64,000 nucleotides of DNA from an uncultured bacterium. GTDB taxonomy: Bacteria; Patescibacteriota; Minisyncoccia; Phycocordibacterales; CAIZLB01. The stretch spans positions 38,315 to 102,314 of the forward strand of contig CAIZVZ010000005.1 of assembly GCA_903936565.1 (NCBI GenBank), written 5' to 3'. The position numbers and the translations under genes are program-made. The notes below the pieces were generated by a model, which saw nothing but the letters and a program-made list of their open reading frames with translations, ran no database searches and was not told the origin of the DNA. Numbering within the stretch: position 1 is the first letter of the stretch; the number at the start of each line of letters is the position of its first letter. Shown piece by piece: positions 28,272 to 51,187 of this stretch.

Positions 28272-28386
28272 TTTATTTTATTTTTATTTTATTTTATAAT
28301 ATCACTCTTTAGATGATTGCGCTGAATCAAACAACAAGCGAGACCAACAGAGATTCTGTTGAATAGTATGATAAATCACCATCGTA

Positions 28387-28953: not shown

Positions 28954-29009
28954 GTTTTAGCTAAATTATTGGGGCTGTTAATAAATTGTGATAATGATAT
29001 CATACCAAC

Positions 29010-30323: not shown

Positions 30324-30394
30324 AATCTAGTGCGCGAGAGAGGACTTGAACCTCCACACCCTTACGGGCACATCCACCTCAAGGATGCTTGTCT
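30311..30394 (-). tRNA. tRNA-Leu (anticodon GAG), type II with long variable arm, CCA not encoded
   Basis: Minus strand reads GCGCGAGTGTTGAAACTGGTAGACAAGCATCCTTGAGGTGGATGTGCCCGTAAGGGTGTGGAGGTTCAAGTCCTCTCTCGCGCA. Anticodon loop is CTTGAGGT. Confidence 0.8.
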
Positions 30395-30440
30395 ACCAGT
30401 TTCAACACTCGCGCATGGCTATATTATGCATAAAACCCAA

Positions 30441-30476
30441 TAACAAAACAAGACCACCTAGGTGGTCTTGTTTTGT
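30441..30476. terminator. Bidirectional intrinsic terminator
   Basis: AAAACAAGACCACCta GGTGGTCTTGTTTT palindrome. Confidence 0.5.
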
Positions 30477-30499
30477 ATAGTGAATGATTTTTATTTAAA

Positions 30500-31003
30500 T
30501 TATTCTGTTGCTGTAGTTTCCTCCACTGCCGCCTCTACCACTTCCACCTCAGGCTCTAGCGCTGCTGTTGCAGCCTCCTCTGCTTCTAATCTTGCAGCTT
30601 CTGCTTTAGTTAGATGAGATGAATCACGCTTTGTCATTTCCATCTTCATTCTCTTACTAATTTCTTTAGCTGCTTTGTCTCTGATGTAGTAAAGCTTAGC
30701 ACGACGAACTTTGGCACGCTTTGTAACTTCTATTTTATCAATATTAGGTGAGTACAATGGGAAGATTCTTTCTACTCCATAGCCTCCTGAAACCTTTCTA
30801 ACGGTAAAAGTACCTCCGGCTTCACTTCCATGCTTTCTAGCAAGAACAAGCCCCTCAAAAACTTGAAGACGAGTCTTACCTTTTTCTTGAATTTTTTGAT
30901 ACACCTTAACTGTATCGCCTACGCGCATATCAAAATCCTTTCTAGTAGCATCTGTTTTAGCCACCTTAATATCCTTTTTAACTGTTTTTATAGCTGCTGT
31001 CAT
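30500..31003 (-). CDS. rplS: 50S ribosomal protein L19 with charged C-terminal extension
   Basis: …[67 protein letters not shown]… is the L19 core. Likely start MTAAIK. Confidence 0.85.
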
Positions 31004-31060
31004 AGGGAGCAATATAGCAGAGATGCTGGGTTTTTGCAAATATCATTAGACAATAAACAC

Positions 31061-31942
31061 CTACGACAGGGATTCGGTAGCTTTTTTGAAATCAGCTGGA
31101 AGTTCAGCCTCAAATTCACTCATTTCTCCACTTACCCCACCTTCATCACTCATTGATGCATCGGATGGTAAAATTAGCTTTAATTTACGTGCATGAAGGG
31201 CTAGACGCTCAAATCCCAGGGCCTTAGGATGATTCTCGGCATACAAACTATCTCCCACCACAGGATGATTTATGGCCTTAAAATGAACCCTGATTTGATG
31301 TGTCCTTCCAGTTAGTGGATGAACCTCAACAAAAGTAAACATTAGGGGTATTTTGGAATTACCCTTGCCAACCATTATGGCACCCCGCTTCATTACAGGA
31401 TCTCCATCGAATCTCTTCAAAACCTTATATTCTGTAACAGCTGGACGAAGCTCTCCTCGAGAAAAACGTTGAGCGCTCCACTTTCTAAAGTCCCCCTTAC
31501 TTCTTCCAATATGTCTATCTATCACACCCTCATCTTCCTTAACAAAACCCCATACAAAAGTATTGTATGTTTTCTTGATTATATGATCCTGAAATTGTTT
31601 TTTGAGTATTTCAAATGCAGCCTGATTTCTAGCTACAACCATAACACCCGAGGTTTCCTTATCTAGTCTGTGCACAATCCCCGGCCTTCTTAGTGTGGTA
31701 GGCTCTTTGTTCGGCCCCCTACCGATTGTCATAGGTTCTCCCACGTCTTTAGTCTCAGGAAATTCTTCCTCAACAAAATCACACAAGGTTTTCTCTTCTG
31801 TCTTTCCGTCGCCATGAACCATAATGCCCGCTGGCTTGTTTATGATCAAAACGTCCTTATCTTGGTATATTATCGATAACATTACCGTTATCATACTTGA
31901 TATTGATATTATTTCAATAATAGTATATATTATGGGAACCAA
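31061..31942 (-). CDS. RluA-family pseudouridine synthase (no S4 domain)
   Basis: …DKDVLIINKPAGIMVHG… and …RPGIVHRLDKETSGVMVVAR… contain the catalytic Asp motif HRLD. Confidence 0.8.
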   Translation of the reverse strand: MVPIIYTIIEIISISSMITVMLSIIYQDKDVLIINKPAGIMVHGDGKTEEKTLCDFVEEEFPETKDVGEPMTIGRGPNKEPTTLRRPGIVHRLDKETSGVMVVARNQAAFEILKKQFQDHIIKKTYNTFVWGFVKEDEGVIDRHIGRSKGDFRKWSAQRFSRGELRPAVTEYKVLKRFDGDPVMKRGAIMVGKGNSKIPLMFTFVEVHPLTGRTHQIRVHFKAINHPVVGDSLYAENHPKALGFERLALHARKLKLILPSDASMSDEGGVSGEMSEFEAELPADFKKATESLS

Positions 31943-31946
31943 ATGA

Positions 31947-32022
31947 GGGCGATTAGCTCAGTTGGTAGAGCAACTCATTTACACTGAGAAGGTCAGGGGT
32001 TCGAGTCCCTTATCGCCCACCA
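31947..32022 (+). tRNA. tRNA-Val (anticodon TAC), CCA encoded
   Basis: GGGCGATTAGCTCAGTTGGTAGAGCAACTCATTTACACTGAGAAGGTCAGGGGTTCGAGTCCCTTATCGCCCACCA. Confidence 0.85.
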
Positions 32023-32027
32023 AAGAA

Positions 32028-32064
32028 AGAAAATAACGCATACGTAAGTGTGCGTTATTTTCTT
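32028..32064 (+). terminator. Putative terminator after tRNA-Val
   Basis: AAATAACGCA-tacgtaagtg-TGCGTTATTT hairpin then tctt. Confidence 0.4.
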
Positions 32065-32299
32065 GATTATTTTATTAGTTATGATTAAATATATCTTGGA
32101 TTCACAGTACGGATCCGCTCTCAACCATAACTACAAAAATCAGTGAACACCCGATCCAAGAAGAACGGTAGCCAACCAAAGAAAACAAGCCTAAAGGGCG
32201 TGAAAAACGGACCAGGCAAACCAGGCTGTCACCCACGTCCAGTTTACAGTGGCAGGGTCACCAACCACAGCAAAGGCTAGGCACCGTTTAACTCAACCC

Positions 32300-32334
32300 C
32301 GGCAGGCGTGGGAATCCCACGCCTGCCTTTTCTT
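32300..32334 (+). terminator. Strong intrinsic terminator ending an unassigned ~270-nt GC-rich plus-strand unit
   Basis: GGCAGGCGTGGG-aatc-CCCACGCCTGCC (12-bp perfect stem) followed by ttttctt. Confidence 0.65.
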
Positions 32335-32370
32335 ATCTAAGATTTTATTTCATTCAGTCCTAAGCGCCCC

Positions 32371-32396
32371 ACAAAAAAAACACCTTGTCGGTGTTT
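32371..32396 (-). terminator. Intrinsic terminator (minus strand)
   Basis: Minus strand reads AACACC-gacaa-GGTGTT followed by TTTTTTTT. Confidence 0.55.
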
Positions 32397-32402
32397 TAAC
32401 GG

Positions 32403-32422
32403 TTGTGCTCTCGGTAGGAATC
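32403..32422. repeat. 20-nt direct repeat of the 3' end (T-arm/acceptor) of the tRNA-Arg gene at 32566..32585
   Basis: ttgtgctctcggtaggaatc occurs identically at 32403-32422 and 32566-32585. Confidence 0.7.
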
Positions 32423-32535
32423 TTCCCCTACGGGGACGGTACAGGTTTCGTATCATGCTCGCTACGCATCGCACAATATACTCAACCTTTTCGATTCCTA
32501 CGCGCAAGCCAAACGGTTGGCTTGCTCTCGAGCCC

Positions 32536-32562
32536 AAAACTAAAAACGCCTTTCGGCGTTTT
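32536..32562 (-). terminator. Intrinsic terminator directly after tRNA-Arg (minus strand)
   Basis: Minus strand reads AACGCC-gaaa-GGCGTT followed by TTTTAGTTTT. Confidence 0.55.
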
Positions 32563-32568
32563 GTTTTG

Positions 32569-32640
32569 TGCTCTCGGTAGGAATCGAACCTACATTAACG
32601 GCTTAGAAGTCCGCAGTTCTATCCATTGAACTACAAGAGC
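32569..32640 (-). tRNA. tRNA-Arg (anticodon TCT) with 4-nt variable loop and one A·G mismatch closing the anticodon stem. CCA not encoded.
   Basis: Minus strand reads GCTCTTGTAGTTCAATGGATAGAACTGCGGACTTCTAAGCCGTTAATGTAGGTTCGATTCCTACCGAGAGCA. Acceptor, D and T arms pair well. Confidence 0.6.
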
Positions 32641-32699
32641 ATGCAAATACAATAGCATATTTTTTAGATTTTACCAGCCCCACCCCATCTAAGTAAAAC

Positions 32700-33080
32700 C
32701 TAGCGCTTAATGTTGGTTGTGGTACCAGAAGTTGTTGAATTTCCCACCATAGAGGTTCCAACGACCGCATTATTATTTTCATAAGTAGCCTTGGTGCTTG
32801 TTGCTACTACCCCCCAAGACACCTCCCTGATTTGATATTTCTCAATTACGCTTTTAATCTCCGCCTCCTTATCCTTTACAGGAACAAAGTCTGTCGCTTC
32901 ACCTGCATCAGACATTAAAGTTGACTGAACGGAAAAATAGAAAAAATAACTCCAAATAAAAACTCCTAGTATTATAGAAAAAGATATAATCATAATTCTT
33001 TGCCAATCCTGAACAGGTCGACTGCCGAATATATACATATTCTTTAATTTACTTCCAAATTGTCCTAGTTCTATGTTCAT
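32700..33080 (-). CDS. Small single-TM protein at the distal end of the pilMNO cluster (PilP-like position), unknown function
   Basis: 126 aa with one TM, then a soluble S/T-rich C-terminus. Co-oriented and abutting pilO. Confidence 0.35.
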   Translation of the reverse strand: MNIELGQFGSKLKNMYIFGSRPVQDWQRIMIISFSIILGVFIWSYFFYFSVQSTLMSDAGEATDFVPVKDKEAEIKSVIEKYQIREVSWGVVATSTKATYENNNAVVGTSMVGNSTTSGTTTNIKR

Positions 33081-33081
33081 A

Positions 33082-33627
33082 TTATTTTTCTTTGACTACT
33101 AATATTTGTAAATCTAACTGTTGGGAACTCGTCGCAGTCTGCAGTCCACCGACTTTTGCAGTAGAATAACTTTTTATCTTTATATTAAAAGGCAGAGATT
33201 CAACTTTATCAACAAAATTTGAGACTGATAACTTGGTACCAGAAATACTTTCCTTTATACTTAAATATTCTTTATTAAACTTAGATAAATTACCGTCCTG
33301 TACTATCTCAATGGCATTTGTACTGAATGTTAAATTGTTTAATGTTGCCAAATCTTCTATCGTCTGTACAAACTTTATAGAACCTTCATTATCAACTGGA
33401 ACAATGTACTTCATCAAATCTGCATTTCTTGCGTCTGCATTCTGAGCAACTCTCTTTATGGAATTCAGGCTATCTTCCTCCTTTTTTAAATCATTAGATT
33501 TCTTATAAATACTTACCAAATCTCCTCCCATACCCCCAACATAAACCACAGCAAAACAATATCCAGAAATAGATGCTAGGGCAAGTATTATCGATATTAT
33601 TAATGTGTAGAAAGTTTTTTTAGTCAT
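33082..33627 (-). CDS. pilO: Type IV pilus assembly protein PilO-like
   Basis: 181 aa, N-terminal TM, coiled-coil then a ferredoxin-like periplasmic domain. Position after pilM/pilN. Confidence 0.5.
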   Translation of the reverse strand: MTKKTFYTLIISIILALASISGYCFAVVYVGGMGGDLVSIYKKSNDLKKEEDSLNSIKRVAQNADARNADLMKYIVPVDNEGSIKFVQTIEDLATLNNLTFSTNAIEIVQDGNLSKFNKEYLSIKESISGTKLSVSNFVDKVESLPFNIKIKSYSTAKVGGLQTATSSQQLDLQILVVKEK

Positions 33628-33630
33628 TGT

Positions 33631-34182
33631 CTATTTTTTTACAGACTTAATTAAATTAAAATTAAATGAAAAACTTAAATCTTTCTTTCTTGTAAAGCTT
33701 GTAATTGGTATATTTATACTTGTAAATTCTGGGTTTGAATTAATTTTCTTCTGTAATTCTATTAATTTGTCTCTATCTGGAGCAACACCACTTATGCTAA
33801 TTGAAGCACTGTTATCATCAATCAATCCATAGGTGTATCTATCAATATAAACCCCCTCTGGTAAGCTGTTTAAAATCTTATTATATGCCTCTTTGGGGGA
33901 TAATATATTTATAGATGTTTTAAGAGCTTCCAAACTTGAATTGACTAACTTAATTTTATCTTGAAAGTTTTGATCCTTTAATACCTGAACGGACCTTTCT
34001 TTTATTTGGTTCTCGCTCTTAATTATATTCACCCTACCTACAGCAGATAGATAACTCGGAAGAAGGCAAGCTAACCCAACCAAAGATATAAACACAATAA
34101 TCCAACAAATCACAATAACAAGCCTCATTTTATACTCTTTGATAACCTTTTTCTTTTGTGATTCTGATAATAGGTGTAACAT
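33631..34182 (-). CDS. pilN: Type IV pilus assembly protein PilN-like
   Basis: 183 aa, short cytoplasmic N-terminus (binds PilM), single TM, periplasmic coiled-coil. Gene order M-N-O. Confidence 0.5.
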   Translation of the reverse strand: MLHLLSESQKKKVIKEYKMRLVIVICWIIVFISLVGLACLLPSYLSAVGRVNIIKSENQIKERSVQVLKDQNFQDKIKLVNSSLEALKTSINILSPKEAYNKILNSLPEGVYIDRYTYGLIDDNSASISISGVAPDRDKLIELQKKINSNPEFTSINIPITSFTRKKDLSFSFNFNLIKSVKK

Positions 34183-34186
34183 CTTT

Positions 34187-35308
34187 TTATTGATCTTTTA
34201 ATAAAGCCAGGCCAAAAGCAGTACCATACCCCAAAGATTCTCGCATGGAAATCTCTGGTATTTCATTCTCAAACGATAGAATGTTAGTCCAAACATTCGC
34301 AACCTCAACCGGAGTCTTTAGTGATATTGCGAGGAAGTCTCTAAAACCAACAACACCAGCTTCCTTTCCCGCTATTAATATCTTCTTGACTCCCGCTGAT
34401 GAATTACCGTTATTTGGTAAACCAGAAACCGCATCAACATTACTCTTAAAATTATTTATACTATTCCAGTAAATAAACACCTTTCTAATTTCCTCGACCA
34501 ACAAATTAGCAGTTGACATCAACGCATTAGAAACGGCCTCATTACCAATGTCTCGTGAAAAACCCTTCTCGAACTTTATTGAAACAGCAGCATCTTCATC
34601 GAGGGACGCACCTTTCATAATGGCGTTAGTAAAATCTTCGGATCCAATAGCGATCGTGGAGGTAAACTGAACAGCCTCATCGTTCACAACCGACAAGACA
34701 GTACTCTTGTGACTAATGTTAACAATGAAATAATTTTCTCTGTCCCCTTTTTTGATAATAGCTCGAGATAATGCTTGGTTTTCAATAAGAAAGGAAATTG
34801 GAAACATTCCGCAAGACTCAAACAACTCAATATATTCATTTATCACAACAACTGGCACAACAGAGACGGCCAAAAATTGCATACCCGTACTCTCATTTTT
34901 CTTTATTCTATGATAATCAAAAATTGCATCATCTAACGATAATGGCACATTTTCTTCAAGGTGCATCTCTATTCTATTTCTAATTTCTTCTTTTGTTCCA
35001 TCGACCACCTCGATAGTGAACAGATAAGCCTTCTCTTCTGGAATAGATATCTCTACAAACTTTAACTTATATTTTTTTTGAATCTTTTTTAATATATCTA
35101 TTAGATTTTTATTAGACAACAGTGATTCATTCGGCAAAATCGGTGATTCCAACTTTTCCTCGGTACAACATTTTAATTTTAACCCCCTAGCAGTTCTAAT
35201 AATTTCAGCCATATGAACAGCGGAGGAGCTGATATCAAAACCAGCATGGGACATTTCTAGATAGTGCGAAGTTGGAAAATATTTATTTAATGTATCTAGG
35301 TACGACAT
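34187..35308 (-). CDS. pilM: Type IV pilus assembly protein PilM (actin-like ATPase fold)
   Basis: 373 aa. Architecture and motifs of the FtsA/PilM family (…ILIAGKEAGVVGF… …GYGTAFGLALL…). Heads the pilMNO cluster. Confidence 0.65.
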   Translation of the reverse strand: MSYLDTLNKYFPTSHYLEMSHAGFDISSSAVHMAEIIRTARGLKLKCCTEEKLESPILPNESLLSNKNLIDILKKIQKKYKLKFVEISIPEEKAYLFTIEVVDGTKEEIRNRIEMHLEENVPLSLDDAIFDYHRIKKNESTGMQFLAVSVVPVVVINEYIELFESCGMFPISFLIENQALSRAIIKKGDRENYFIVNISHKSTVLSVVNDEAVQFTSTIAIGSEDFTNAIMKGASLDEDAAVSIKFEKGFSRDIGNEAVSNALMSTANLLVEEIRKVFIYWNSINNFKSNVDAVSGLPNNGNSSAGVKKILIAGKEAGVVGFRDFLAISLKTPVEVANVWTNILSFENEIPEISMRESLGYGTAFGLALLKDQ

Positions 35309-35386
35309 GTACTACTATTCTATCATAACAAAAAGATTTTGTTATAGTTATTTTGAAACTTTTTTCAGTTTTTATTTTAATTAAGA

Positions 35387-36250
35387 CTATTTTAACTTTG
35401 TACCATTTGGTAAATCCTTACTTGGATTAAGTAGGGCTAAATTGTCACCTGAGTTGCCAGCTAAAATCATAGCCTGACTCTCTTGCCCCATCATCATTCT
35501 AGGAGCTAGGTTTGTAACAAATGGAAACTTCTTTCCCAGAATTTCTTCCATTTCTACATATTTTGCAATTCCCGATAGAACCTGCCTTGGCTTTTCTTCA
35601 CCAAAATCAACTGATAGTTTCAATAACTTATCAGACCCTTCTATCTTTTCTGCGGATAAAATCTGGCCAATCTTTATTTCAACCTTAACAAAATCGTCTA
35701 TTGTAATATAGTCTGGAGTTTTAGGTACCCCTGCCTCTGGAGCCCTGTCGGCAGATGCCGCGTTGTCCACAACTATTTCATCCCCTGCTGTTGTTTGTGT
35801 ATTCATATTTTTAAATTTTATTCTATCTAGATAACTTTGTAAAATTATAGCCGCTGCTGATGCATCTACGTTCTTATTCTCACCTTGAAACTTAGTAGCT
35901 TGAACCGTGGAGTATAATTCTGGTTCATATACAACATCAAATCCAGCTTCTTCAAGTTTTGATCCAAAGAACCTAGCATCCACCATTATTGTATTATCAA
36001 CCCCCTTCAAATCTACCGAGTGTCCAATTATAACAGTCTGGGCCTGCTTTTCTTTTATAATATCAAACACCTCCTGCAAGGCCAACCTTATCCTTTCCTC
36101 CCTCTTATCTGTATCGTGACCAAAACCAGGAACCACCGACAAAGGAAATGCTAATAAACCAAGCTCATCCGAGACAGCTACGCCGATTCTCTTTGATCCA
36201 AAATCTAGCCCTACTATCCTTTTGTTTACTTCAGAGACATCTTTATTCAT
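35387..36250 (-). CDS. ruvX: Fusion protein: Holliday-junction-resolvase-like RuvX/YqgF (N-terminal) plus Trbp111/CsaA-type tRNA-binding domain (C-terminal)
   Basis: N-terminus RIVGLDFGSKRIGVAVSD…DASAAAIILQSYLD equals the YqgF/RuvX signature. C-terminus DFVKVEIKIGQILSAEKIEGSDKLLKLSVDFGEEKPRQVLSGIAKYV…FVTNLAPRMMMGQESQAMILA equals the PF01588 tRNA_bind OB fold. Confidence 0.8.
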   Translation of the reverse strand: MNKDVSEVNKRIVGLDFGSKRIGVAVSDELGLLAFPLSVVPGFGHDTDKREERIRLALQEVFDIIKEKQAQTVIIGHSVDLKGVDNTIMVDARFFGSKLEEAGFDVVYEPELYSTVQATKFQGENKNVDASAAAIILQSYLDRIKFKNMNTQTTAGDEIVVDNAASADRAPEAGVPKTPDYITIDDFVKVEIKIGQILSAEKIEGSDKLLKLSVDFGEEKPRQVLSGIAKYVEMEEILGKKFPFVTNLAPRMMMGQESQAMILAGNSGDNLALLNPSKDLPNGTKLK

Positions 36251-36371
36251 GATTATTTGTAGTCTATCAAAAAGAATGGTTTGTGGCTAATTATGATAAT
36301 AAGAGCCGTGAGATGTTGACCAAATCCTCATCTATTGTTTTTTTCTTTATTTTTGCTAATATGACAAGCAC

Positions 36372-36458
36372 GGAGGAGTGGCAGAGTGGTCTAATGCACT
36401 TGTCTTGAAAACAAGAGTCTCTTTACGGGGACCGTGAGTTCGAATCTCACCTCCTCCG
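36372..36458 (+). tRNA. tRNA-Ser (anticodon TGA), type II
   Basis: GGAGGAGTGGCAGAGTGGTCTAATGCACTTGTCTTGAAAACAAGAGTCTCTTTACGGGGACCGTGAGTTCGAATCTCACCTCCTCCG. Confidence 0.85.
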
Positions 36459-36469
36459 CCGATATTTAA

Positions 36470-36496
36470 AAAGCGCCCAGCGGGGGCGTTTTTTTA
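36470..36496 (+). terminator. Intrinsic terminator after tRNA-Ser
   Basis: aaaaGCGCCCagcGGGGGCGttttttt. Confidence 0.6.
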
Positions 36497-36523
36497 TTTA
36501 CAAACCTTGGGTTTTATTTTGAT

Positions 36524-37228
36524 CTACCAAGGCATTCTCTCCTTTCCAAACCAGAAGCCTCCGGTCTCCTTATCTGAAACAACAACACTATAAATACCTA
36601 GAGCAGCCTCTTCTGCTGTTATATCAGCCTCTGGTCCACCAAGATCGGTCCTAACCCATCCAGGGTGAACCGAAGAAACTATTATATCTGACTTCTTCAA
36701 CCTCTGCGCCAGAGTGCATGTATACATATTTAGCCCAGCTTTTGAAATTTTATAGCTAGGATAATGATATGGATAGTGGCTCTCAACCCTACCTGCTTTT
36801 TCCAGCGACCCCGCAGAAGACGAAATATTTATAATTTGTCCACCAGAATTTATTTGAGAAATCAGCCTTTCTGTAAAATCGATTGGCCCAACCAGGTTGA
36901 CCTCTAGTGTTTTTCTAAGTTTATCAACAATCACACTTGTGTCATCCTCATCAAAAAGTGCGCCTGCGTTATTTATTAAAATATCAATTTTTGTCCCTGT
37001 TTCAATTATTTCATTAGCACACCTTTCTATACTTTCAGGTGAAGATAAATCTAGCTCGAAGATTTTTGCTTTAGGTACCCCGTCGCAAGATTCAGTCCCT
37101 GTTTCGGTGTTAATTTTACCAACCCCAGTATAAACCGTTCCCAAAACATCAAAGCCTTCTTTTGTAAATTTAAGACGAAGCGCCTCCCCTATTCCTTTTG
37201 AAACCCCTGTAATTAGTACTGTTTTCAT
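36524..37228 (-). CDS. Short-chain dehydrogenase/reductase (SDR) family oxidoreductase
   Basis: MKTVLITGVSKGIGEAL (TGxxxGIG), NNAG, and catalytic YxxxK (YKISKAG). Confidence 0.75.
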   Translation of the reverse strand: MKTVLITGVSKGIGEALRLKFTKEGFDVLGTVYTGVGKINTETGTESCDGVPKAKIFELDLSSPESIERCANEIIETGTKIDILINNAGALFDEDDTSVIVDKLRKTLEVNLVGPIDFTERLISQINSGGQIINISSSAGSLEKAGRVESHYPYHYPSYKISKAGLNMYTCTLAQRLKKSDIIVSSVHPGWVRTDLGGPEADITAEEAALGIYSVVVSDKETGGFWFGKERMPW

Positions 37229-37299
37229 ATTGTAAGCATATCATGAATTTTTCAACACTTAAATATTTTATTCGAGAATAACATTTATCAAAATACGAA

Positions 37300-37806
37300 A
37301 TGGGTGATATAATTATTTTAATCATGGACAATGAACCACAAGTCAAATCAATAACCTGGGAAACTTACGAGCATGAACATCGGGAAAAAAGTAAAGACTG
37401 GTATTGGTCTCTTGGAATTTTAATTGTCACAGCGTCAGTTCTGTCTATAATTTTTGGTAATTATCTTTTTGGAATACTACTTATCGTTATAGGTGTATCA
37501 CTTGCGGTTGTTGGATCCAAACATCCAAAGTTAACCATTTTTGAATTAAACAAGATGGGTATCAGAATTGGCAATAAACTATTTCCCTACGCCACCCTTG
37601 AGGCTTTTTGGGTTCAGGATAATGGGGAACACGACCGACCATCTCAATTATTGGTTAAGTCAAGAAAGACAATGGTACCTTTATTGATAATCCCAATCGA
37701 AGGAATAGAGACTCACGAGATTAGGGATTTCTTATTGTATAATCTACTTGAAAAGGAGATGGAGGAGTCCCTTTCACAGCTAATACTAGAAAATTTGGGT
37801 TTTTAG
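37300..37806 (+). CDS. Membrane protein, unknown function (two TM then soluble domain, possibly bacterial PH-like)
   Basis: 168 aa. Hydrophobic hairpin WYWSLGILIVTASVLSIIFGNYLFGILLIVIGVSLAVVG. Confidence 0.35.
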   Translation: MGDIIILIMDNEPQVKSITWETYEHEHREKSKDWYWSLGILIVTASVLSIIFGNYLFGILLIVIGVSLAVVGSKHPKLTIFELNKMGIRIGNKLFPYATLEAFWVQDNGEHDRPSQLLVKSRKTMVPLLIIPIEGIETHEIRDFLLYNLLEKEMEESLSQLILENLGF

Positions 37807-37833
37807 CAAATCTGTGGTACTTTTTATGGTATC

Positions 37834-37905
37834 GCTCTCGTCGTTCAATGGATAGGACATGACTTTGCGGAAGTTAAAATGTAGGTTCGATTCCTACCGG
37901 GAGCA
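37834..37905 (+). tRNA. tRNA-Arg, paralog of 32569..32640. Anticodon reads GCG by eye. 4-nt variable loop. CCA not encoded.
   Basis: GCTCTCGTCGTTCAATGGATAGGACATGACTTTGCGGAAGTTAAAATGTAGGTTCGATTCCTACCGGGAGCA. Shares the D-loop and T-arm with the other Arg tRNA. Confidence 0.6.
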
Positions 37906-37937
37906 CAAAAATAGAATGTTTTATTATTGGGTGTGTT

Positions 37938-38228
37938 TTGAAATTCTGTGATAAAATACTGAGTATGAATAATTTACCTCTTGTTATCCCCGTAATATAT
38001 TTATTGATATATTGGGTGGGAGCATTCTTCATTGTATATCACCTGCTTAAATACGGTATTACATACTGGCCCAAAAGAGTGGCGGCAGTATTCCTAGCTG
38101 GATCTATAGTACTCAGCGTACTCAGCTTTATGCTCTTTACCCAAATAGATTTTCAACAGCTTTTCGATGGAAAGCTCTTACAAAGCAATAACAGCTTTTT
38201 AGAAAATTTTAAGCAAAAAACACAATAA
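37938..38228 (+). CDS. Small membrane protein, unknown function
   Basis: 96 aa, two predicted TM helices. Confidence 0.3.
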   Translation: MKFCDKILSMNNLPLVIPVIYLLIYWVGAFFIVYHLLKYGITYWPKRVAAVFLAGSIVLSVLSFMLFTQIDFQQLFDGKLLQSNNSFLENFKQKTQ

Positions 38229-38229
38229 T

Positions 38230-38904
38230 ATGCCAAAAATAGTACTTAGAAAACAAAATTGGTTTTTCGACGGTAAGGAGGACGAAGAGGATGTAATTCT
38301 TGTTTTACACAGGCACGTTGTCACGTTAGTGGCTAAAATAACCCTGATTGTATTTTTTGCTTTTTTGCCATTTGTTTTTTTGGTTGTTTTTAGTTCCGTA
38401 ATTGTTAAATACAACCTAATATCTGTTTATTCTTTTGCTTGGATTACCTACTACTTATTCCTATGGTTCTGGTTATTTTACGTAATAACGATGTATTCCT
38501 TGGATAACTGGGTAGTTACAACAAAAAGAGTTGTAGACAGCCTTCAAACAGGATTCTTTAACAGGAGGGTCGCTGAGTTGCAGCTCGACAAGATTCAGGA
38601 CGTTTCATACAAAGTACAAGGCCTAATACCAACATTCTTTAATTATGGATTGGTAGAAATACAAACCGCAAGTAAGGACAACAAATTTTTCTTTGAGCAG
38701 GTTCCTAATCCCCAGAGAGTTAAAGACGTCATAATGGAGCTCATAATTGAAGAGGAGGAGGAAACCGAATCTGGAGGAGATAACAAACACCCCCATCCAC
38801 ATAGACATGTTTTGGTTGCAAACCATGGAATCCCAACACACCTAGTAACAGAAAACGCGGAGGATGTTGCTGAAGTTGATAAGGATATTCAATCTGGAAT
38901 TTAA
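38230..38904 (+). CDS. Membrane protein with probable bacterial PH (bPH_2/DUF304-like) domain and His-rich acidic tail
   Basis: A TM hairpin followed by a ~80-aa soluble domain (…VVTTKRVVDSLQTGFFNRRVAELQLDKIQDVSYKVQGLIPTFFNYGLVEIQTAS…), arranged as in YdbS/YdbT-like proteins. Tentative. Confidence 0.35.
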   Translation: MPKIVLRKQNWFFDGKEDEEDVILVLHRHVVTLVAKITLIVFFAFLPFVFLVVFSSVIVKYNLISVYSFAWITYYLFLWFWLFYVITMYSLDNWVVTTKRVVDSLQTGFFNRRVAELQLDKIQDVSYKVQGLIPTFFNYGLVEIQTASKDNKFFFEQVPNPQRVKDVIMELIIEEEEETESGGDNKHPHPHRHVLVANHGIPTHLVTENAEDVAEVDKDIQSGI

Positions 38905-38924
38905 AACCATAAAAAACATCGAAA

Positions 38925-38958
38925 CAAAAAAAACACCCGTCGGGTGCTTTTTTGTTTA
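38925..38958. terminator. Bidirectional terminator between the 38230..38904 ORF (+) and rpsT (-)
   Basis: aaaaaaaaCACCCgtcGGGTGcttttttg. Confidence 0.5.
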
Positions 38959-38976
38959 TTTAAAAGACTTAATAAA

Positions 38977-39237
38977 TTAGCCTAATTTCTTAACCATCTT
39001 ACTTAGTCTTGACTTCTTTCTGTCTGCTGCACCTTTCTTGATAAGACCACTCTTTGCAGCCTTATCTAATTCCTTATAAGCCTTAGATAGAGCTGTTTGA
39101 GCTGTAGCCTTGTCTGTTGCTGTAAGACTCTTAACACCCTTAACTGCGATGTCTACCTTCTTCTTACGACGGACATTAACAACTCTCTTTCTCTCTGAGC
39201 CTCTAAGTGCTTTTTTTGCTGATTGGGTTATTGGCAT
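38977..39237 (-). CDS. rpsT: 30S ribosomal protein S20
   Basis: MPITQSAKKALRGSERKRVVNVRRKKKVDIAVKG… is typical S20. Confidence 0.85.
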   Translation of the reverse strand: MPITQSAKKALRGSERKRVVNVRRKKKVDIAVKGVKSLTATDKATAQTALSKAYKELDKAAKSGLIKKGAADRKKSRLSKMVKKLG

Positions 39238-39358
39238 ATGTATTGCAAACAATAGCAGAAAAGTTGTTTTTTGACAACTCCAAACCTAGATTACAGTAAC
39301 AAGCACTAGAAAGGTAGGTGTTTTAGCAAAACCAACAACTGGGTGGTATAATACCTCC

Positions 39359-39976
39359 ATGATTGGATATCTAAAAGGAGACATTATTTATAGGGATTTG
39401 AAGTTTTTGATAATAAATACAGGGAGTGGTCAAAATGGTGTTGGCTACAAGGTATATACAACCCCAGACTTTATTACGGAAACTGAAAATTTAGACCGTG
39501 TTGAAATGTGGATTCACACCGTAGTTAAAGACGACGCTATAGATTTATATGGATTCAAAAACAAGGGATCTTTGGACTTCTTCGATCTCCTTCTAAGTGT
39601 TTCTGGAATAGGACCGAAGTCCGCCCTGAATATTCTCGGACTAGCCAACACCCAAAACTTAAGACAAGCGATTGTTTCTCAGGATATCTCATACCTAACA
39701 AATGTTTCTGGAATTAGTAAAAAAATAGCGGAAAAGATAGTTTTGGAATTAAAAGGAAAGGTTCTTGGTGGGGACGATGATGAATCTGATGGAGTCGGAA
39801 TATTGTCCAGCAATAAACAAAGTAGAGGTGTTGAAGTTGAGGCACTTGAAGCTCTCAAGGCGTTGGGATATACTCAGCGAGAAGCAAGGGAGGCGCTCGA
39901 AAATGTATCTAAAGAAATTAAGGATTCAAAAGATATAAGTGCTATACTAAAGGCAACACTCAAGGTTTTAAGTTAA
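39359..39976 (+). CDS. ruvA: Holliday junction DNA helicase subunit RuvA
   Basis: MIGYLKGDI…, HhH motifs (LLSVSGIGPKSALNIL; VSGISKKIAEKIVLELKGK), C-terminal domain III. Confidence 0.85.
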   Translation: MIGYLKGDIIYRDLKFLIINTGSGQNGVGYKVYTTPDFITETENLDRVEMWIHTVVKDDAIDLYGFKNKGSLDFFDLLLSVSGIGPKSALNILGLANTQNLRQAIVSQDISYLTNVSGISKKIAEKIVLELKGKVLGGDDDESDGVGILSSNKQSRGVEVEALEALKALGYTQREAREALENVSKEIKDSKDISAILKATLKVLS

Positions 39977-40019
39977 TTAACACCCAAAACACCTCCCCTG
40001 CTCCGACATAAATAACAAT

Positions 40020-40994
40020 ATGCCTGAACTACCAGAAGTACAGACAACCGTTAATGGTTTAAATAAAAAAGTTAAGGGCGCAAAAATAATTGACGTCTGG
40101 AGTATTTACAATAGTCCATATTATAAATCAAAAGAAAATATTAAAGATCCAAAGTTTTTTAAGGAGTTTAAAGAAAGAATAATCGGATCTAAAATTATTA
40201 ACGCGGAACGGCGGGCAAAAAATATTCTAATCTATTTGGATAACAAAGAAACAATTTTAATTCACATGAAGATGACGGGGCATTTGATGTTTGGGGAATA
40301 CACCAACACTAATAAAACAAATGACCCATGGAAACCAACAGACCCAAACAACGAAGCCCTCAATGACCCGTTCAACACTCACATAAGACTTGTTTTTAGC
40401 CTTGAAATGCCAGGTACGAAAAAAGGTGTTGAGAAAGTTAACCTTGTTTTATCTGACACTAGAAAATTTGCAAAAGTAACTGTTATTAAAACGGACGGCA
40501 TATTCCACTCCCCTGATTTGTCTCATCTCGGCCCAGAGCCACTCGCTAAGGAATTTAATTTTAAAATATTTAAGGATCAAATAAACAAAAAACCGAACGG
40601 AAAGATTAAGACAACGCTCTTGGATCAAACTATAATTGCCGGCATTGGCAATATTTATTCCGACGAAGCATTGTGGCTTTCAAATATTCATCCAGAGAGT
40701 TTAGTTAAAAATATTCTAGACACCGAACTTAAAAAACTTTTTAATTCGGTTTTAATTGTTCTTAAAAATGGAATAGACTTTGGTGGTGATTCAATGTCAG
40801 ATTACAGAAACATTGATGGCGAGCGAGGCTCATTTCAAGAGAGACATAATGCATATAGAAAAACAGGACATATTTGTTCAAAACCGGCATGTAAGAAAGA
40901 AAACAAACTAAATCTTAAGATTGGTATAATTAAGAGAATTGTCGTCGGAGGACGAAGTACTCATTATTGTGAAAATCATCAAACCAAGTATTGA
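40020..40994 (+). CDS. mutM: Formamidopyrimidine-DNA glycosylase (Fpg/MutM)
   Basis: MPELPEVQTTVNGL… N-terminal catalytic Pro/Glu, H2TH region, and a C-terminal Cys-rich zinc finger. Confidence 0.8.
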   Translation: MPELPEVQTTVNGLNKKVKGAKIIDVWSIYNSPYYKSKENIKDPKFFKEFKERIIGSKIINAERRAKNILIYLDNKETILIHMKMTGHLMFGEYTNTNKTNDPWKPTDPNNEALNDPFNTHIRLVFSLEMPGTKKGVEKVNLVLSDTRKFAKVTVIKTDGIFHSPDLSHLGPEPLAKEFNFKIFKDQINKKPNGKIKTTLLDQTIIAGIGNIYSDEALWLSNIHPESLVKNILDTELKKLFNSVLIVLKNGIDFGGDSMSDYRNIDGERGSFQERHNAYRKTGHICSKPACKKENKLNLKIGIIKRIVVGGRSTHYCENHQTKY

Positions 40995-41635
40995 AACAAA
41001 ACGATTCCCGCTGTCACTGCAACATTTAAAGACTCTTTCTTTCCATTCATTGGTAATTCAACACAAACATCGACTTTATCTAAAATCTTTTTAGGTAGCC
41101 CTAAAACCTCATTGCCAAAAATAAATGCTATTTTTTTGGCCGAAGAGCCCACATCAGACTCAGAATCACATTCATCTTTAAACAAGTTATTAAAATCTAG
41201 ATCTTTATAATTTATGGAGTTCTTCGTCTGTTCAACTGCAATAATTTTATAACCATCCTTTTTTAACTTATTTAGCAACGAGGTGTGACTTTTAAAATAT
41301 TTCCAAACAAGACTCTTCTCTGCACCCAATGCGGTCTTGGCAATTTCAGGTTGAGGTTTGTTAAATTTATTTAACGGTGTCGGAGTATAACCAGATAAGT
41401 ATACAGCGCCAACTCCAGCGGCATCTGAGGTTCTAAAAATAGATCCCACATTATGTGCACTTCTTATATCAGGTAAAACAACAACCACTTCAAAAACACC
41501 CTTTTTATCAGCGCAACACTCAGAATTATTAGCTAAATTATAGCTTTTTTCGTCTTTTTTGATTTTATTCCCTTTAATATTAGACATTTCTTGTTTTTTT
41601 GATATAGTTTTAACATTATTTGATAATACGTACAA
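40979..41635 (-). CDS. SpoU/TrmH-family RNA 2'-O-methyltransferase
   Basis: SPOUT motifs …NVGSIFRTSDAAGV… and …IFGNEVLGLP…ESLNVAVTAGIVLFQ. Confidence 0.7.
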   Translation of the reverse strand: MYVLSNNVKTISKKQEMSNIKGNKIKKDEKSYNLANNSECCADKKGVFEVVVVLPDIRSAHNVGSIFRTSDAAGVGAVYLSGYTPTPLNKFNKPQPEIAKTALGAEKSLVWKYFKSHTSLLNKLKKDGYKIIAVEQTKNSINYKDLDFNNLFKDECDSESDVGSSAKKIAFIFGNEVLGLPKKILDKVDVCVELPMNGKKESLNVAVTAGIVLFQYLV

Positions 41636-41660
41636 GAAATTGAACGTACGACAAATATAC

Positions 41661-41733
41661 CCGCTCGTAGCTCAGTCGGTAGAGCACCTGCCTTTTAAGC
41701 AGAGGGTCGTAGGTTCGATTCCTACCGAGCGGA
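41661..41733 (+). tRNA. tRNA-Lys (anticodon TTT)
   Basis: CCGCTCGTAGCTCAGTCGGTAGAGCACCTGCCTTTTAAGCAGAGGGTCGTAGGTTCGATTCCTACCGAGCGGA. Coordinates are ±1 nt. Confidence 0.85.
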
Positions 41734-47912: not shown

Positions 47913-49628
47913 ATGACAATCCACTTTGATGAAGATAAACAAAATACTAGAATGAAGAAACTCCTTCTTGATGAGGAGGAAGCGGCAATGCAAATGTTGG
48001 CAGAGAAGTACAGTGTTACATACATAGATTTAACAACAGTTTCTATTAACTCAGATGGACTGAAGTTAATTGAAGAAAAAACAGCCAGAGAAAGCCTAGT
48101 GGCTATTTTTGATATTGTTGGAACCAAGATTTCTATTGCAGTCCACTCCCCTGAAAGCAATGACACAAAGGACGTATTAGATACTCTGGAAAGGAGTGGT
48201 TACAAGGCAACTGTTTTTATAGCCTCAATTCACAGCCTAGAGAAAGCCTGGGAGCGTTACAAGGATATAAACTTCGCCACAGAAACAGAAGCTGGATCAC
48301 TTGATATTTCAAACGAGGAAATCGAGTCGTTAGTCCAAAGAACCAAGAATCTTGAGGATATTTCTAAGTGGATAGCAGAAGCCTTGGAGATGAAAAAAAC
48401 CCACAGGGTGTCAAAAATGCTTTCTATTGTTATGGCCGGAGCGCTTTCCACCAAATCTTCCGACGTTCACATAGAAGCCGGGGAACTAAAAGCACGCCTT
48501 AGGTATAGAATAGACGGTGTTTTAACAACGGTTTCAGAATTTGACAAGGAAACTTATGAATTAACACTCTCTCGTATTAAGTTACTTTCTGGTTTAAAAC
48601 TAAATATCAAAGAAAATGCACAAGACGGCAGATTCACAGTTAAAATCAAGAACACTGATATTGAGATAAGAACCTCCACGATTCCTGGTTCTTACGGTGA
48701 GTCTGTGGTTATGCGTATTCTTAATCCTGAATCCATTATGGTTACTATGGATAAGTTAGGTATGTCAAAGCGTTTTCTTGAGGCGGTAAGAAAGGAAATT
48801 GCTAGACCAAATGGCCTTATTTTAACAACCGGACCAACCGGTTCTGGAAAAACTACAACTCTTTATGCATTTTTAAGGGAGGTGTCTAATCCTGAATATA
48901 AAATAATCACGATTGAAGACCCCGTTGAATACCACCTTCCTGGTATTGTTCAAACACAAGTTGAAGAATCTAAGGGTTACACTTTCGAAGCGGGACTGAA
49001 GTCTGCAATGAGACAAGACCCTGACATCATAATGGTTGGAGAAATTCGAGATGCCGAAACTGCAATTACAGCAATTAATGCGGCGCTGACGGGACACCTT
49101 GTATTCTCCACCCTTCACACAAACAATGCCGCTGGAACATTTACTAGATTAATAGATCTAGGTGCAGATCCAAAAACACTAACGTCTGCAATCCACGCCG
49201 CTATCGCCCAAAGACTAGTTAGAGTTATCTGTGACAAATGCAGAAAGAAAGTTCCGATACCAACAGAGCGGGTTGCTTTAGTTGATGATGTTTTAGAATC
49301 AATAAAGAACATGGAAGAGGGTAAGGAGTTTATAGAAAAGCCAACTGAAATTTATATACCCGTTGGATGTGAGGCTTGCAACAACACAGGTTATTTTGAC
49401 AGAATTGGAATTCACGAATTAATTTTAACTGACGCTTCGATTGAAAAAATAGTTAGAGAAAATCCAAGTGAAAGAGAGATTAAAGCTGTGGCTAAAAAAC
49501 AAGGCTTTATGGACATGAGACAGGATGGTGTAGTGAAAGTTTTACAAGGTATTACATCATTCGATGAATTGGAACGTGTTATTGATTTAGCCAAGGATGA
49601 TTTCATAGAAGAAACACCTCTTGTATAA
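47913..49628 (+). CDS. pilB: Type IV pilus assembly / type II secretion ATPase (PilB/GspE family)
   Basis: T2SSE_N-like N-terminus, Walker A GPTGSGKTTTLYA, Asp and His boxes, and a C-terminal tetracysteine (CDKC…CEAC). Confidence 0.85.
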   Translation: MTIHFDEDKQNTRMKKLLLDEEEAAMQMLAEKYSVTYIDLTTVSINSDGLKLIEEKTARESLVAIFDIVGTKISIAVHSPESNDTKDVLDTLERSGYKATVFIASIHSLEKAWERYKDINFATETEAGSLDISNEEIESLVQRTKNLEDISKWIAEALEMKKTHRVSKMLSIVMAGALSTKSSDVHIEAGELKARLRYRIDGVLTTVSEFDKETYELTLSRIKLLSGLKLNIKENAQDGRFTVKIKNTDIEIRTSTIPGSYGESVVMRILNPESIMVTMDKLGMSKRFLEAVRKEIARPNGLILTTGPTGSGKTTTLYAFLREVSNPEYKIITIEDPVEYHLPGIVQTQVEESKGYTFEAGLKSAMRQDPDIIMVGEIRDAETAITAINAALTGHLVFSTLHTNNAAGTFTRLIDLGADPKTLTSAIHAAIAQRLVRVICDKCRKKVPIPTERVALVDDVLESIKNMEEGKEFIEKPTEIYIPVGCEACNNTGYFDRIGIHELILTDASIEKIVRENPSEREIKAVAKKQGFMDMRQDGVVKVLQGITSFDELERVIDLAKDDFIEETPLV

Positions 49629-49772
49629 TTTCATTTATTTGACACTTCAAATAAATAATTATCCAAAACAAAACTGTGTAAATCTCCGTTGACTTAGAAT
49701 GACCTCACAGGTATTGTTATGTTATCAATTTAGCGTGCTGGGAAATAAGTTCAAAAATTGATAACAAAAAAA

Positions 49773-49936
49773 CAGCACTTTAAATCTCTAAGCGATGCTT
49801 TAAGTCCTAAGACCTAAAGCCCGATAGTTCTTTAAGGATAGTTCCAGGAACGTGGCGTAAAGCCCGCACCAGAACGTCCTTTAAGAAAAACCGATAGACC
49901 CGCAAAGGTTGTATCGCTTAGAGATTTAAGGAGCTG
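49773..49936. repeat. 164-bp element bounded by 17-bp perfect (21 of 24) terminal inverted repeats: MITE-like element or structured ncRNA
   Basis: cagcactTTAAATCTCTAAGCGAT … ATCGCTTAGAGATTTAAggagctg followed by tttt. The interior has internal repeats (ctttaag ×3, ccgatag ×2). Confidence 0.5.
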
Positions 49937-50125
49937 TTTTATTCCATAAGAATATCACACAAAGATAAATCCCTTTTTGTATCTTAACTACAAAAACCTA
50001 TTTTAACATGCCAAAACCATCTGGCAAGCATCTTTCAAGTTCATAAGTATCGTAGCATACTTATTTTTTAATGTCAAGCGGTCTTTCTATAGATTACGGG
50101 TTAAAATACATAAAAATAAACCCAA

Positions 50126-51187
50126 ATGACTCAAGATTTTAATACAAATTTCTCAAATAACCCTTTAAATACAACAATAACCGATGAGGTATTGGAAAAG
50201 ATTGGGGACAAGGTACTAGATCAAGAACTAAGGCCTGGTAATTTTGAGGAGTATATTGGACAAGAACAGATCAAAAACAACCTTAAAATACTACTTACCG
50301 CAGCAAAAGAGCGCAACCACCCACCAGAACACTTGTTGTTTTATGGTCCACCAGGACTGGGTAAGACCACACTCGCCCACCTTATCGCTAAAGAGACGGG
50401 TTCACAGATCAAAATCACATCAGGGCCTGTTATAGAGCGCGTAGGAGATCTTGCTTCAGTTTTAACAAACCTATCACCAGGGGACATTCTGTTTATTGAT
50501 GAAATTCACCGTTTAAACAAAACTGTTGAAGAGGTACTTTATCCCGCTATGGAATCGGGTCAAATTGATATTATAATTGGAAAAGGCCCATCAGCTCGAA
50601 CTATTCAATTAGACCTACCTCCGTTCACCTTGATTTCCGCAACCACAAGGGTTGCCATGGTCTCCTCCCCTCTCCGCTCAAGATTTTCTGGAGGTGTATT
50701 TCGTCTGGAGTTCTATACAGAATCTGAAATATCAAAAATAGTTTCTAGATCTGCCAACATTCTTAATTTAAATATCGACAATGGCGCAATAGATGAAATT
50801 GCAAAAAGAAGTCGTTCTACCCCACGTACCGCAAACTATCTATTAAAGAGATGTAGAGATTATTCACAGGTTCTAAAAAAACAATTAACAAAAGAGGTGG
50901 TCGAGGAAGCTCTGTCGCTTCTTTCAATCGACAGACGAGGACTAACAGCAATGGATCGTTCTATACTTTCAACAATAATAGAAAAATACGACGGTGGACC
51001 CGTTGGTCTTGGAACAATCTCAGCTTCACTTTCTGAAGACGAAGCCACTATTGAAGAGTTCAGTGAACCGTATTTGATTCAACTGGGTTTTATTGAAAGA
51101 ACCCCTCGAGGACGTGTTGTTACAGCTCAGGGTTATGCTCACTTAGGAATAGATTATCCAGCTGAAAGACAAATTAAATTTGCTTAA
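50126..51187 (+). CDS. ruvB: Holliday junction DNA helicase RuvB
   Basis: LRPGNFEEYIGQEQIKNNLKILL…LLFYGPPGLGKTTLAHLIA… is the RuvB AAA+ domain with a winged-helix C-terminus. Confidence 0.9.
   Translation: MTQDFNTNFSNNPLNTTITDEVLEKIGDKVLDQELRPGNFEEYIGQEQIKNNLKILLTAAKERNHPPEHLLFYGPPGLGKTTLAHLIAKETGSQIKITSGPVIERVGDLASVLTNLSPGDILFIDEIHRLNKTVEEVLYPAMESGQIDIIIGKGPSARTIQLDLPPFTLISATTRVAMVSSPLRSRFSGGVFRLEFYTESEISKIVSRSANILNLNIDNGAIDEIAKRSRSTPRTANYLLKRCRDYSQVLKKQLTKEVVEEALSLLSIDRRGLTAMDRSILSTIIEKYDGGPVGLGTISASLSEDEATIEEFSEPYLIQLGFIERTPRGRVVTAQGYAHLGIDYPAERQIKFA

Follow-up and report, generated by a model that had tools for sequence, protein, structure and literature searches.

A predicted small RNA gene with a covarying four-way junction on the minus strand of the pilB-ruvB spacer in Patescibacteria

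Genes and features of the pilB-ruvB spacer

The analysed DNA is a stretch of 64,000 nucleotides from a patescibacterial contig, which we refer to as the window; all positions are counted from its first letter. The spacer between pilB and ruvB had been singled out in the original prediction as unusually long, and we measured 497 bp (49629-50125). Pfam confirmed both flanking genes, a T2SSE/PilB-type ATPase and RuvB, with RuvC coming after RuvB. No ORF of at least 40 aa was found in the spacer. The features of the locus are listed below; those of the RNA gene are predictions from motif scans, folding and covariation.

47913-49628, plus strand: pilB-type T2SSE ATPase gene (Pfam), convergent with the RNA gene
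49689-49717, plus strand: promoter-like site TTGACT-17-TATTGT, candidate promoter of a ruvB leader, reading through the element to ruvB
49766-49772, minus strand: run of seven Us straight after P1, likely 3' end or terminator tail in this clade
49769-49940, minus strand: structured core of ~172 nt, four-way junction P1-P4 (MFE, consensus structure, covariation)
49769-49796, minus strand: 3' strand of P1, AUCGCUUAGAGAUUU...GCUGUUUU, partner of 49913-49940
49797-49820, minus strand: hairpin P4, GCUUUAGGUC-UUAG-GACUUAAAGC, with a variable top (covariation, fold)
49821-49894, minus strand: P3, long irregular hairpin with a variable apical stem-loop (covariation, fold)
49898-49909, minus strand: P2, short hairpin ACCU-UUGC-GGGU (predicted fold)
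49913-49940, minus strand: 5' strand of P1, with a variable outer part (P1a) and a nearly invariant inner part (P1b, AAAUCUCUAAGCGAU)
49941-50042, minus strand: variable 5' leader from the predicted start to P1, with a local hairpin at 49967-50003
50000-50027, minus strand: second promoter-like site, TTGCCA-16-TAAAAT with TG, of uncertain status (motif scan)
50049-50077, minus strand: RNA promoter, −35 box TTGACA at 50077-50072, 17-nt spacer, extended −10 box TATGC-TACGAT at 50059-50049
50071-50077, plus strand: relic ATGTCAA, the ancestral ruvB start, overlapping the −35 box of the RNA gene and out of frame in the window
50126-51187, plus strand: ruvB (Pfam), invariably next to the RNA gene on its promoter side

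The inverted repeat reported for this spacer was confirmed, with perfect 17-nt arms at 49780-49796 and 49913-49929. A repeat search lengthened the arms to 31 nt (49766-49796 and 49913-49943, 90% complementary) with 116 nt enclosed between them. The element also shows the GC enrichment that had been reported, with 0.445 compared to 0.368 in the window. A chance origin had been called very unlikely on account of the arms, and the folding energies agree with this. For the plus strand we obtained a minimum free energy (MFE) of −72.2 kcal/mol with a shuffle mean of −34 (z = −10.1), for the minus strand −79.7 kcal/mol with a shuffle mean of −42 (z = −8.9), and not one of 200 shuffles folded as well as the element. 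The short internal repeats, CTTTAAG in three copies and CCGATAG in two, exist as described and can be explained as paired strands of the helices P3 and P4. Just before the element the plus strand carries a run of seven As (49766-49772), which is the U7 run on the minus strand.

Fold, covariation and transcribed strand

Read on the minus strand, the element is predicted to fold into four helices around a junction. P1 is the closing helix of ~28 bp. Its outer part is variable and G-U rich. The inner 15 bp, AAAUCUCUAAGCAAU / AUUGCUUAGAGAUUU, hardly vary and contain Watson-Crick pairs only. At the position of P2 we found a hairpin of unrelated sequence in ~70 of 73 homologues, and P2 lies outside the covariance model. 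P3 has a conserved core AGGAC...CUGG / CUGG..UAUCCU, which consists of an AGGA/UCCU helix, a C/UA internal loop and a CUGG/CUGG segment; a U-G pair was present in this segment in 76 of 81 sequences. The base of P4 (CUUU/AAAG) is conserved as well. The linkers between the helices are only 0-3 nt long in the predicted fold, so that the four-way junction would be tight. The apical loops of P2, P3 and P4 vary among homologues and many of them are UUCG-like.

We counted covariation over the 55 pairs of the model, using 81 sequences outside its building set. In these non-seed sequences 90.2% of the cells were paired, compared to 74.1% for shuffles and 39-53% when the partners were slid against each other. 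Compensatory changes were observed in 45 of the 55 pairs, and the covariation score was 0.491 against 0.191, with none of 500 shuffles reaching 0.491. The changes are spread over the helices: 7/7 pairs of P1a and 8/9 pairs of P4 showed compensatory changes, and so did 13 of the 17 pairs of P1b, which were 97% paired (figures again from the non-seed sequences). Folding and covariation analysis had been suggested as a check of the element, and both support the four-way junction.

RNAalifold on the plus strand already revealed many compensatory changes in the closing helix, and the first covariance model was built for that strand; it was dropped once the energies and the G-U counts favoured the minus strand. 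We folded both strands for 74 homologues and found the minus strand to be more stable in 70 of them, on average by 11.9 kcal/mol. The alifold consensus energy of the 14 closest sequences was −59.9 for the minus strand and −38.8 for the plus strand. Over the model's 55 pairs there were 447 G-U cells and 91 A-C cells on the minus strand, and the 81 non-seed sequences gave 526 and 107, with G-U exceeding A-C in 80 of the 81. As an A-C mismatch on one strand is a G-U pair on the other, this asymmetry identifies the transcribed strand and excludes a DNA cruciform. The covariance model matched the element of the window with 204.7 bits on the minus strand. Judged by these sequence patterns, the RNA is encoded by the minus strand, in antisense to both flanking genes. 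A structured small RNA had been among the options of the original prediction. Covariation supports that option, and the plus-strand orientation in which it was read is contradicted by the G-U/A-C asymmetry, the promoter and the terminators.

A plus-strand reading would make the element a cis-regulatory leader of ruvB (a riboswitch, an attenuator or a thermosensor) or a terminator of pilB, and some observations fit it. The fold of the plus strand is strong as well (−72 kcal/mol, z = −10), promoter-like sites precede the element on this strand in 31 of 99 loci, and in the window the stem is followed by TTTT (49937-49940). This tetranucleotide is present as reported, although its interpretation as a terminator fails with the change of strand. 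On the plus strand the 526 G-U cells of the RNA strand become A-C and only 107 cells change the reverse way; it was also the less stable strand in those 70 of 74 homologues. The plus-strand covariance model generalised worse, with 93 versus 113 bits for locus L025 and 83 versus 109 bits for L048. A scan for plus-strand terminators between 49500 and 50250 found none, and a pilB terminator would have a stem enclosing 116 nt and a tail that is mostly not U-rich across lineages, unlike the short G+C-rich hairpin with an adjoining U tract that makes an intrinsic terminator. The region past the stem is, moreover, occupied by the RNA's own leader and promoter. We therefore consider a plus-strand leader or terminator highly unlikely.

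The same data bear on the proposal that the element acts as DNA, either as a cruciform or as a palindrome bound by a protein, for example a ruvB operator. Two almost invariant, purely Watson-Crick arms of 15 bp within the ruvB upstream region are what one would look for in such an element. The arms are 116 bp apart, however, and their spacing varies among homologues (131-152 bp arm to arm). Double changes keep them complementary, the other, inner helices accept G-U on one strand only, and dedicated promoter and terminator signals stand on both sides. The protein-binding palindrome of the original prediction finds no support in these observations, and we rate a function at the DNA level as even less probable than a plus-strand leader.

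Distribution, promoter and overlap with ruvB

Relatives were gathered with the RuvB protein of the window, keeping one genome per species. This resulted in 80 loci, all from Patescibacteria MAGs with a RuvB identity of 65-97%, which are labelled Taylor-, Zambryski-, Vogel-, Nomura- or Campbellbacteria, or Paceibacterota/Parcubacteria. Homologues of the element were detected with nhmmer, a simple arm pattern and covariance models. They were found in 73 of the 75 genome loci with enough upstream DNA and lie in the same slot, 50-400 nt upstream of ruvB; conservation at this locus in relatives, together with covariation, was thus present where the original prediction had asked for it. Across Paceibacteria/Parcubacteria the arrangement is pilB> <RNA ruvB>. 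In five loci the gene on the other side is not pilB, and the adjacency to ruvB is still kept. A further 26 members came from metagenome contigs that had been retrieved by the internal P3 motif only, with no context information. Every such contig that reaches far enough has ruvB on the promoter side in the same relative orientation. The two related genomes without the RNA at this locus have a pilB-ruvB gap of ~10 nt, i.e. a pilB-ruvB operon.

This distribution decides against a miniature inverted-repeat transposable element (MITE), one of the earlier options, and against mobile or repeated DNA of other kinds. The terminal inverted repeats, the size (~164-178 bp; MITEs share the range of ~170 bp) and the AT-rich host genome are indeed MITE-like. 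We found only one copy in the 64-kb window, however, and in ~1.3 Mb of related loci the element occurs at the orthologous site only, which is the opposite of the multiple copies that would have indicated a MITE. It occupies this slot in ~100 genomes or contigs, and relatives with as little as 65% RuvB identity still have it, with compensatory changes; it also has its own promoter and terminator, in which it differs from a MITE. We searched for a target-site duplication, and the flanks ...GATAACAAAAAAA| and |TTTTATTCC... share no direct repeat. In viral contigs the arm pattern had no matches. The P3-motif pattern had 120 chance matches there, and the first 80 listed, tested with the covariance model, included no members; these 80 double as a negative control for the model. 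A mobile element has next to no chance of being the right explanation. Even when the plus-strand leader or terminator, the DNA palindrome and the MITE are taken together, we consider it quite improbable that one of them is correct. The case calls for some caution with 'terminal inverted repeats' of AT-rich genomes, which can turn out to close the fold of an RNA encoded by the opposite strand. A non-coding RNA of the retron, bridge RNA or omega-RNA type was also considered and rejected, since no matching enzyme gene adjoins: around the element lie genes for the PilB-type ATPase, RuvB and RuvC, and none for a reverse transcriptase, recombinase or nuclease.

The signals flanking the core fit a separate transcription unit. 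Of 99 loci, 92 have a TTGACA-N17-TGnTAnnnT motif upstream of the element on the minus strand, and in the window it is the only perfect TTGACA promoter with a TGn extension within the 64 kb. It predicts a transcription start near 50042. Depending on the locus, 7 to 120 nt separate the −10 box from P1, and this variation suggests that the 5' leader is dispensable or processed. The second promoter-like site (50000-50027) was found only in near-identical relatives, where conservation is uninformative. At the 3' end, where the window has its U7 run, other lineages have a U-run after P1 as well or, close behind it, a separate hairpin of the canonical terminator type. The element has a promoter of its own, a U-run or terminator at its 3' end and no ORF. 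As predicted from these signals, it is a stand-alone minus-strand gene for a structured small RNA, with a core running from 49940 to 49769 and a near-consensus σ70-type extended −10 promoter from 50077 to 50049. That such a gene exists here and belongs to an undescribed family is in our judgement very probable.

The RNA promoter is entangled with the start of ruvB. In 66 loci the heptamer ATGTCAA (Met-Ser) starts the ruvB frame, in frame and open into RuvB, and this heptamer is the reverse complement of TTGACAT, i.e. the −35 box of the RNA promoter plus one base. From ATGTCAA to the conserved motif LDQTLRP, RuvB differs greatly in length among the loci, and the frame is always kept. The ATG of ATGTCAA is thus a real start codon, and the RNA gene and ruvB share nucleotides. 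By this reading of the sequences, the RNA gene overlaps the expression signals of ruvB (−35 hexamer/start codon) in about two thirds of the relatives. A −35 box that overlaps the start codon of a neighbouring gene is unusual. In the window and in its two closest relatives, loci L002 and L003, the heptamer is frameshifted and the promoter is retained; RuvB of the window starts at 50126.

We also asked from where ruvB might be transcribed. Just upstream of its ATG we found no conserved plus-strand −35/−10 pair or Shine-Dalgarno sequence apart from the RNA promoter read in mirror image. The missing Shine-Dalgarno sequence is not special, as only 3 of the 52 ORFs in the window carry one. The plus-strand promoter-like site at 49689-49717 is kept in all group-1 relatives. 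Of all 99 loci, 31 have plus-strand promoter-like sites left of the RNA gene, compared to 4 with such sites on the opposite strand of this region and ~8% of shuffles; in about two thirds of the loci no plus-strand promoter was recognisable on either side. The sites to the left of the RNA gene, the ~10-nt pilB-ruvB gap in genomes without the RNA and the lack of a conserved promoter close to ruvB together suggest that ruvB is reached by transcription which crosses the RNA gene in antisense and runs head-on towards the RNA promoter.

Relation to known RNAs and proposed function

Patescibacteria/CPR genomes are tiny, and beyond the universal RNAs we know of almost no conserved non-coding RNAs described for them. 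An RNA of ~170 nt that is supported by covariation, sits at one locus throughout a class and has no Rfam match would be a new family in a poorly charted phylum. With Rfam 15 we obtained no family match at the gathering threshold in the window or in 20 diverse loci, and at a permissive threshold (E ≤ 10) three divergent members gave only chance matches of microRNA type. The check for a known family that had been proposed for the element hence came back empty at both thresholds. The small SRP RNA, RNase P RNA and tmRNA were rejected on the same grounds. Inspection by eye found no K-turn, SRP helix-8 or RNase P P4 motif, and a literature search on non-coding RNAs of CPR/Parcubacteria, 6S RNA, RNA motifs at ruvB and the literal arm sequence returned nothing relevant.

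6S RNA is the widespread bacterial non-coding RNA that is most often missed by homology searches, and there was no 6S match in the DNA examined. Both points speak for a divergent 6S-like RNA, which would bind the RNA polymerase holoenzyme as a mimic of an open promoter. The length of ~170 nt fits, as do the 5' and 3' ends paired in a long closing helix, the strong promoter of housekeeping type and a primary sequence that is weakly conserved outside a few helices. 6S RNA is, however, rod-like and opens into a large single-stranded bubble at its centre, whereas the new RNA has a tight four-way junction with linkers of 0-3 nt and with P2 and P4 supported by covariation. RF00013, RF01685 and any other 6S-type model remained without a match at E ≤ 10 in the three divergent members. 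By analogy with 6S RNA such a role is conceivable, and we find it very doubtful.

Two other groups of RNAs are comparable. Y RNA and 4.5S/SRP RNA also combine an end helix that is conserved in sequence with a variable distal part, and variable leaders imply processing of the ends. The new RNA differs from them in having no SRP helix-8 motifs, no GNRA tetraloop and no model match, and no gene for Ro/Rsr or another partner is located nearby. Orphan classes from comparative genomics such as the raiA, OLE, HEARO and ROOL-type motifs (PMC5737381, PMC10861870) resemble it in being defined by covariation only, in their restricted taxonomic range, and in their multi-stem junctions and conserved internal loops. 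The new RNA stands apart from these classes by lying outside Rfam 15, by its restriction to Patescibacteria (Paceibacteria) and by its strictly fixed slot overlapping the signals of ruvB.

What the RNA does can be approached from where its conservation lies. The conserved positions are in the helices and the junction and the loops are variable, which points to an RNA bound by a protein rather than one that pairs through a seed. We looked for conserved or mutually complementary apical loops that could serve as kissing loops or as a seed and found that the loops vary; in the rest of the 64-kb window there is no site complementary to the RNA. A trans-acting small RNA with seed pairing was rejected as a candidate, as apical loops and junction linkers are variable and provide no conserved single-stranded seed. 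From the pattern of conservation the RNA most likely works via a putative protein partner, as an RNP or in the manner of a decoy, and action by seed pairing with mRNAs seems unlikely.

A protein-bound RNA could be a trans-acting housekeeping RNP RNA, with a status like that of SRP RNA, 6S RNA or Y RNA, that is unrelated to ruvB and lies next to it only because promoter and start codon came to overlap and the overlap was frozen. This account would explain the strongest consensus promoter in the 64 kb, with the same architecture in 92 of the 99 loci, and the deep conservation of structure and sequence with invariant positions in helices and junction. The pairing of the ends in a long stem behind a variable leader suggests processing to a defined mature RNA, and the variable loops fit an RNA that does not act by seed pairing. 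The fixed slot could then be accidental, frozen where signals overlap in a compact genome, and have no functional link to ruvB. On the other hand, the RNA was never found away from ruvB, even in contigs retrieved by its internal motif. An essential RNA would also hardly be expected to be cleanly absent from the locus in two relatives unless its gene has moved, and these two genomes could carry the gene elsewhere. On the sequence patterns this housekeeping account has a real chance, though we would not expect it to be the right one; as far as the role alone is concerned, a purely trans-acting RNP would be nearly as likely as the combination of protein binding and action in cis that we favour.

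In this favoured combination the RNA is bound by a protein and its gene also opposes the transcription of the ruvB leader in cis. The strong RNA promoter would fire head-on at transcription nearing ruvB, whether this comes from pilB read-through or from the candidate promoter at 49689-49717. Transcription of the RNA and the transcript itself would probably lower or insulate the expression of ruvB-ruvC in cis. The route could be interference between convergent promoters, a fully complementary antisense duplex that would be a likely substrate of RNase III, or both. The shared nucleotides at the ruvB start and the orientation against incoming transcription make for a testable hypothesis of how recombination and repair genes are tuned. 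As the overall explanation, a minus-strand small RNA gene that makes a protein-bound RNA and also opposes ruvB leader transcription is the one we lean towards. That local control of ruvBC is the main role of the RNA is plausible from the arrangement of the locus, and we hold this part with rather more doubt.

Cis-antisense and convergent-promoter arrangements are exemplified by the structured antisense RNAs of the Sib/Ibs type, by GadY and by the 'sitting-duck' pR/pL promoters of coliphage 186. The new RNA shares with such modules a structured non-coding RNA of ~150-200 nt, strongly transcribed according to the predicted promoter, whose gene lies within the leader region of a neighbour on the other strand, with promoters facing each other across the element. 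In contrast to these modules there is no toxin ORF opposite to it, transcription of the opposite strand is here deduced from promoter-like sites and gene order, and the −35 box of its promoter coincides with the start codon of the neighbour. Its class-wide conservation of structure and sequence also exceeds the needs of antisense pairing. The complementary strand co-varies automatically, so antisense pairing alone cannot account for the invariant 15-bp helix, which demands another partner. A role purely in antisense pairing or interference would require neither the conserved four-way junction nor this helix.

A more specific idea concerns the protein partner. The four-way junction and the invariant helix might be recognised by the Holliday-junction enzymes RuvA, RuvB or RuvC, or by a regulator of these enzymes, and the gene would be tied to ruvB through the −35 box that doubles as its start codon. 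We consider this unlikely; if it were true, the class-wide RNA would be a decoy or regulator devoted to the processing of Holliday junctions, and it would do what LexA-type protein repressors do in other bacteria. We also checked whether RuvA is missing and found a RuvA homologue at 39359-39781.

The start of ruvB and the promoter of the small RNA

We observed that in most loci the start of ruvB coincides with the promoter of the minus-strand small RNA (sRNA) predicted between pilB and ruvB. Reverse complementing the sRNA -35 box TTGACAT yields the ruvB start ATG-TCA-A in 66 of the 99 related loci. The overlap is located as follows:

50071-50077 (+): ATGTCAA overlapping the -35 box; ~30-200 nt to the right of the RNA in the loci L004-L199

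For the window as well as for L002 and L003 the ATG at this overlap has been shifted out of the ruvB frame, and the start of ruvB lies 55 nt further downstream, at a position that is occupied by an internal Met in L004.

Only 3 out of all 52 window ORFs of at least 150 aa showed a GGAG/GAGG/AGGA motif at -20 to -4; Shine-Dalgarno sequences are essentially unused by this organism. The DNA upstream of the ORFs is A/U-rich and in several cases carries a -10-like box near the ATG, and on these grounds the mRNAs may be leaderless.

Inverted repeats and promoter-like sites around the RNA gene

Several further elements were detected on both sides of the RNA gene:

49633-49656: perfect 10-nt inverted repeat ATTTATTTGA/TCAAATAAAT with a 4-nt loop, 5 nt past the pilB stop codon
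49689-49717 (+): promoter-like site left of the RNA gene
49714-49731 / 49755-49772: 18-nt inverted repeat, 89% complementary, directly past the U-run of the RNA
49967-50003: hairpin with 15-nt arms, 80% complementary, within the predicted sRNA 5' leader
50027-50000: second promoter-like site, TTGCCA-16-TAAAAT, just upstream of the leader hairpin

The 18-nt inverted repeat overlaps a -10-like hexamer on the plus strand and shows a compensatory change in L004; it may act as a second terminator element or as a 5' hairpin in the leader of ruvB. The second promoter-like site was found only in near-identical relatives. As the repeat behind pilB consists of A and T only and is not followed by a U tract, it would be a weak terminator at best.

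Plus-strand promoter-like sites comparable to the one at 49689-49717 also occur left of the RNA gene in other loci (e.g. L011 2576, L064 2639 and L110 4719). In 19 loci these sites contain a palindrome, (T)GTCAATTGA(C)A, with a -35-like hexamer on both strands; it could be a bidirectional -35 element or the binding site of a regulator.

Gene context and lineage-specific variation

Two related genomes have no RNA gene at the pilB-ruvB locus (L023, 2860-2880; L035, ~2905-2915). There only ~10 nt lie between the stop codon of pilB and the ATG of ruvB, which implies a pilB-ruvB operon. A RuvA homologue is encoded in the window at 39359-39781 (+); its alignment with E. coli RuvA spans 142 aa at 35% identity (E = 2e-21). 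The 10-kb distance of this homologue from ruvB-ruvC indicates that the usually intact ruvAB operon is split in this lineage.

Within the 64-kb window there was no Rfam match to rRNA, SRP RNA, RNase P RNA, tmRNA or 6S RNA, and the only matches were six tRNA genes within 26792-41733. In single lineages the RNA is expanded by long additional hairpins, with the core retained in every one:

L033 2696-2910 and L079 2741-2952: extra hairpin in the short hairpin P2
L024 and L043, ~2709-2904: extra hairpin in the loop of hairpin P4
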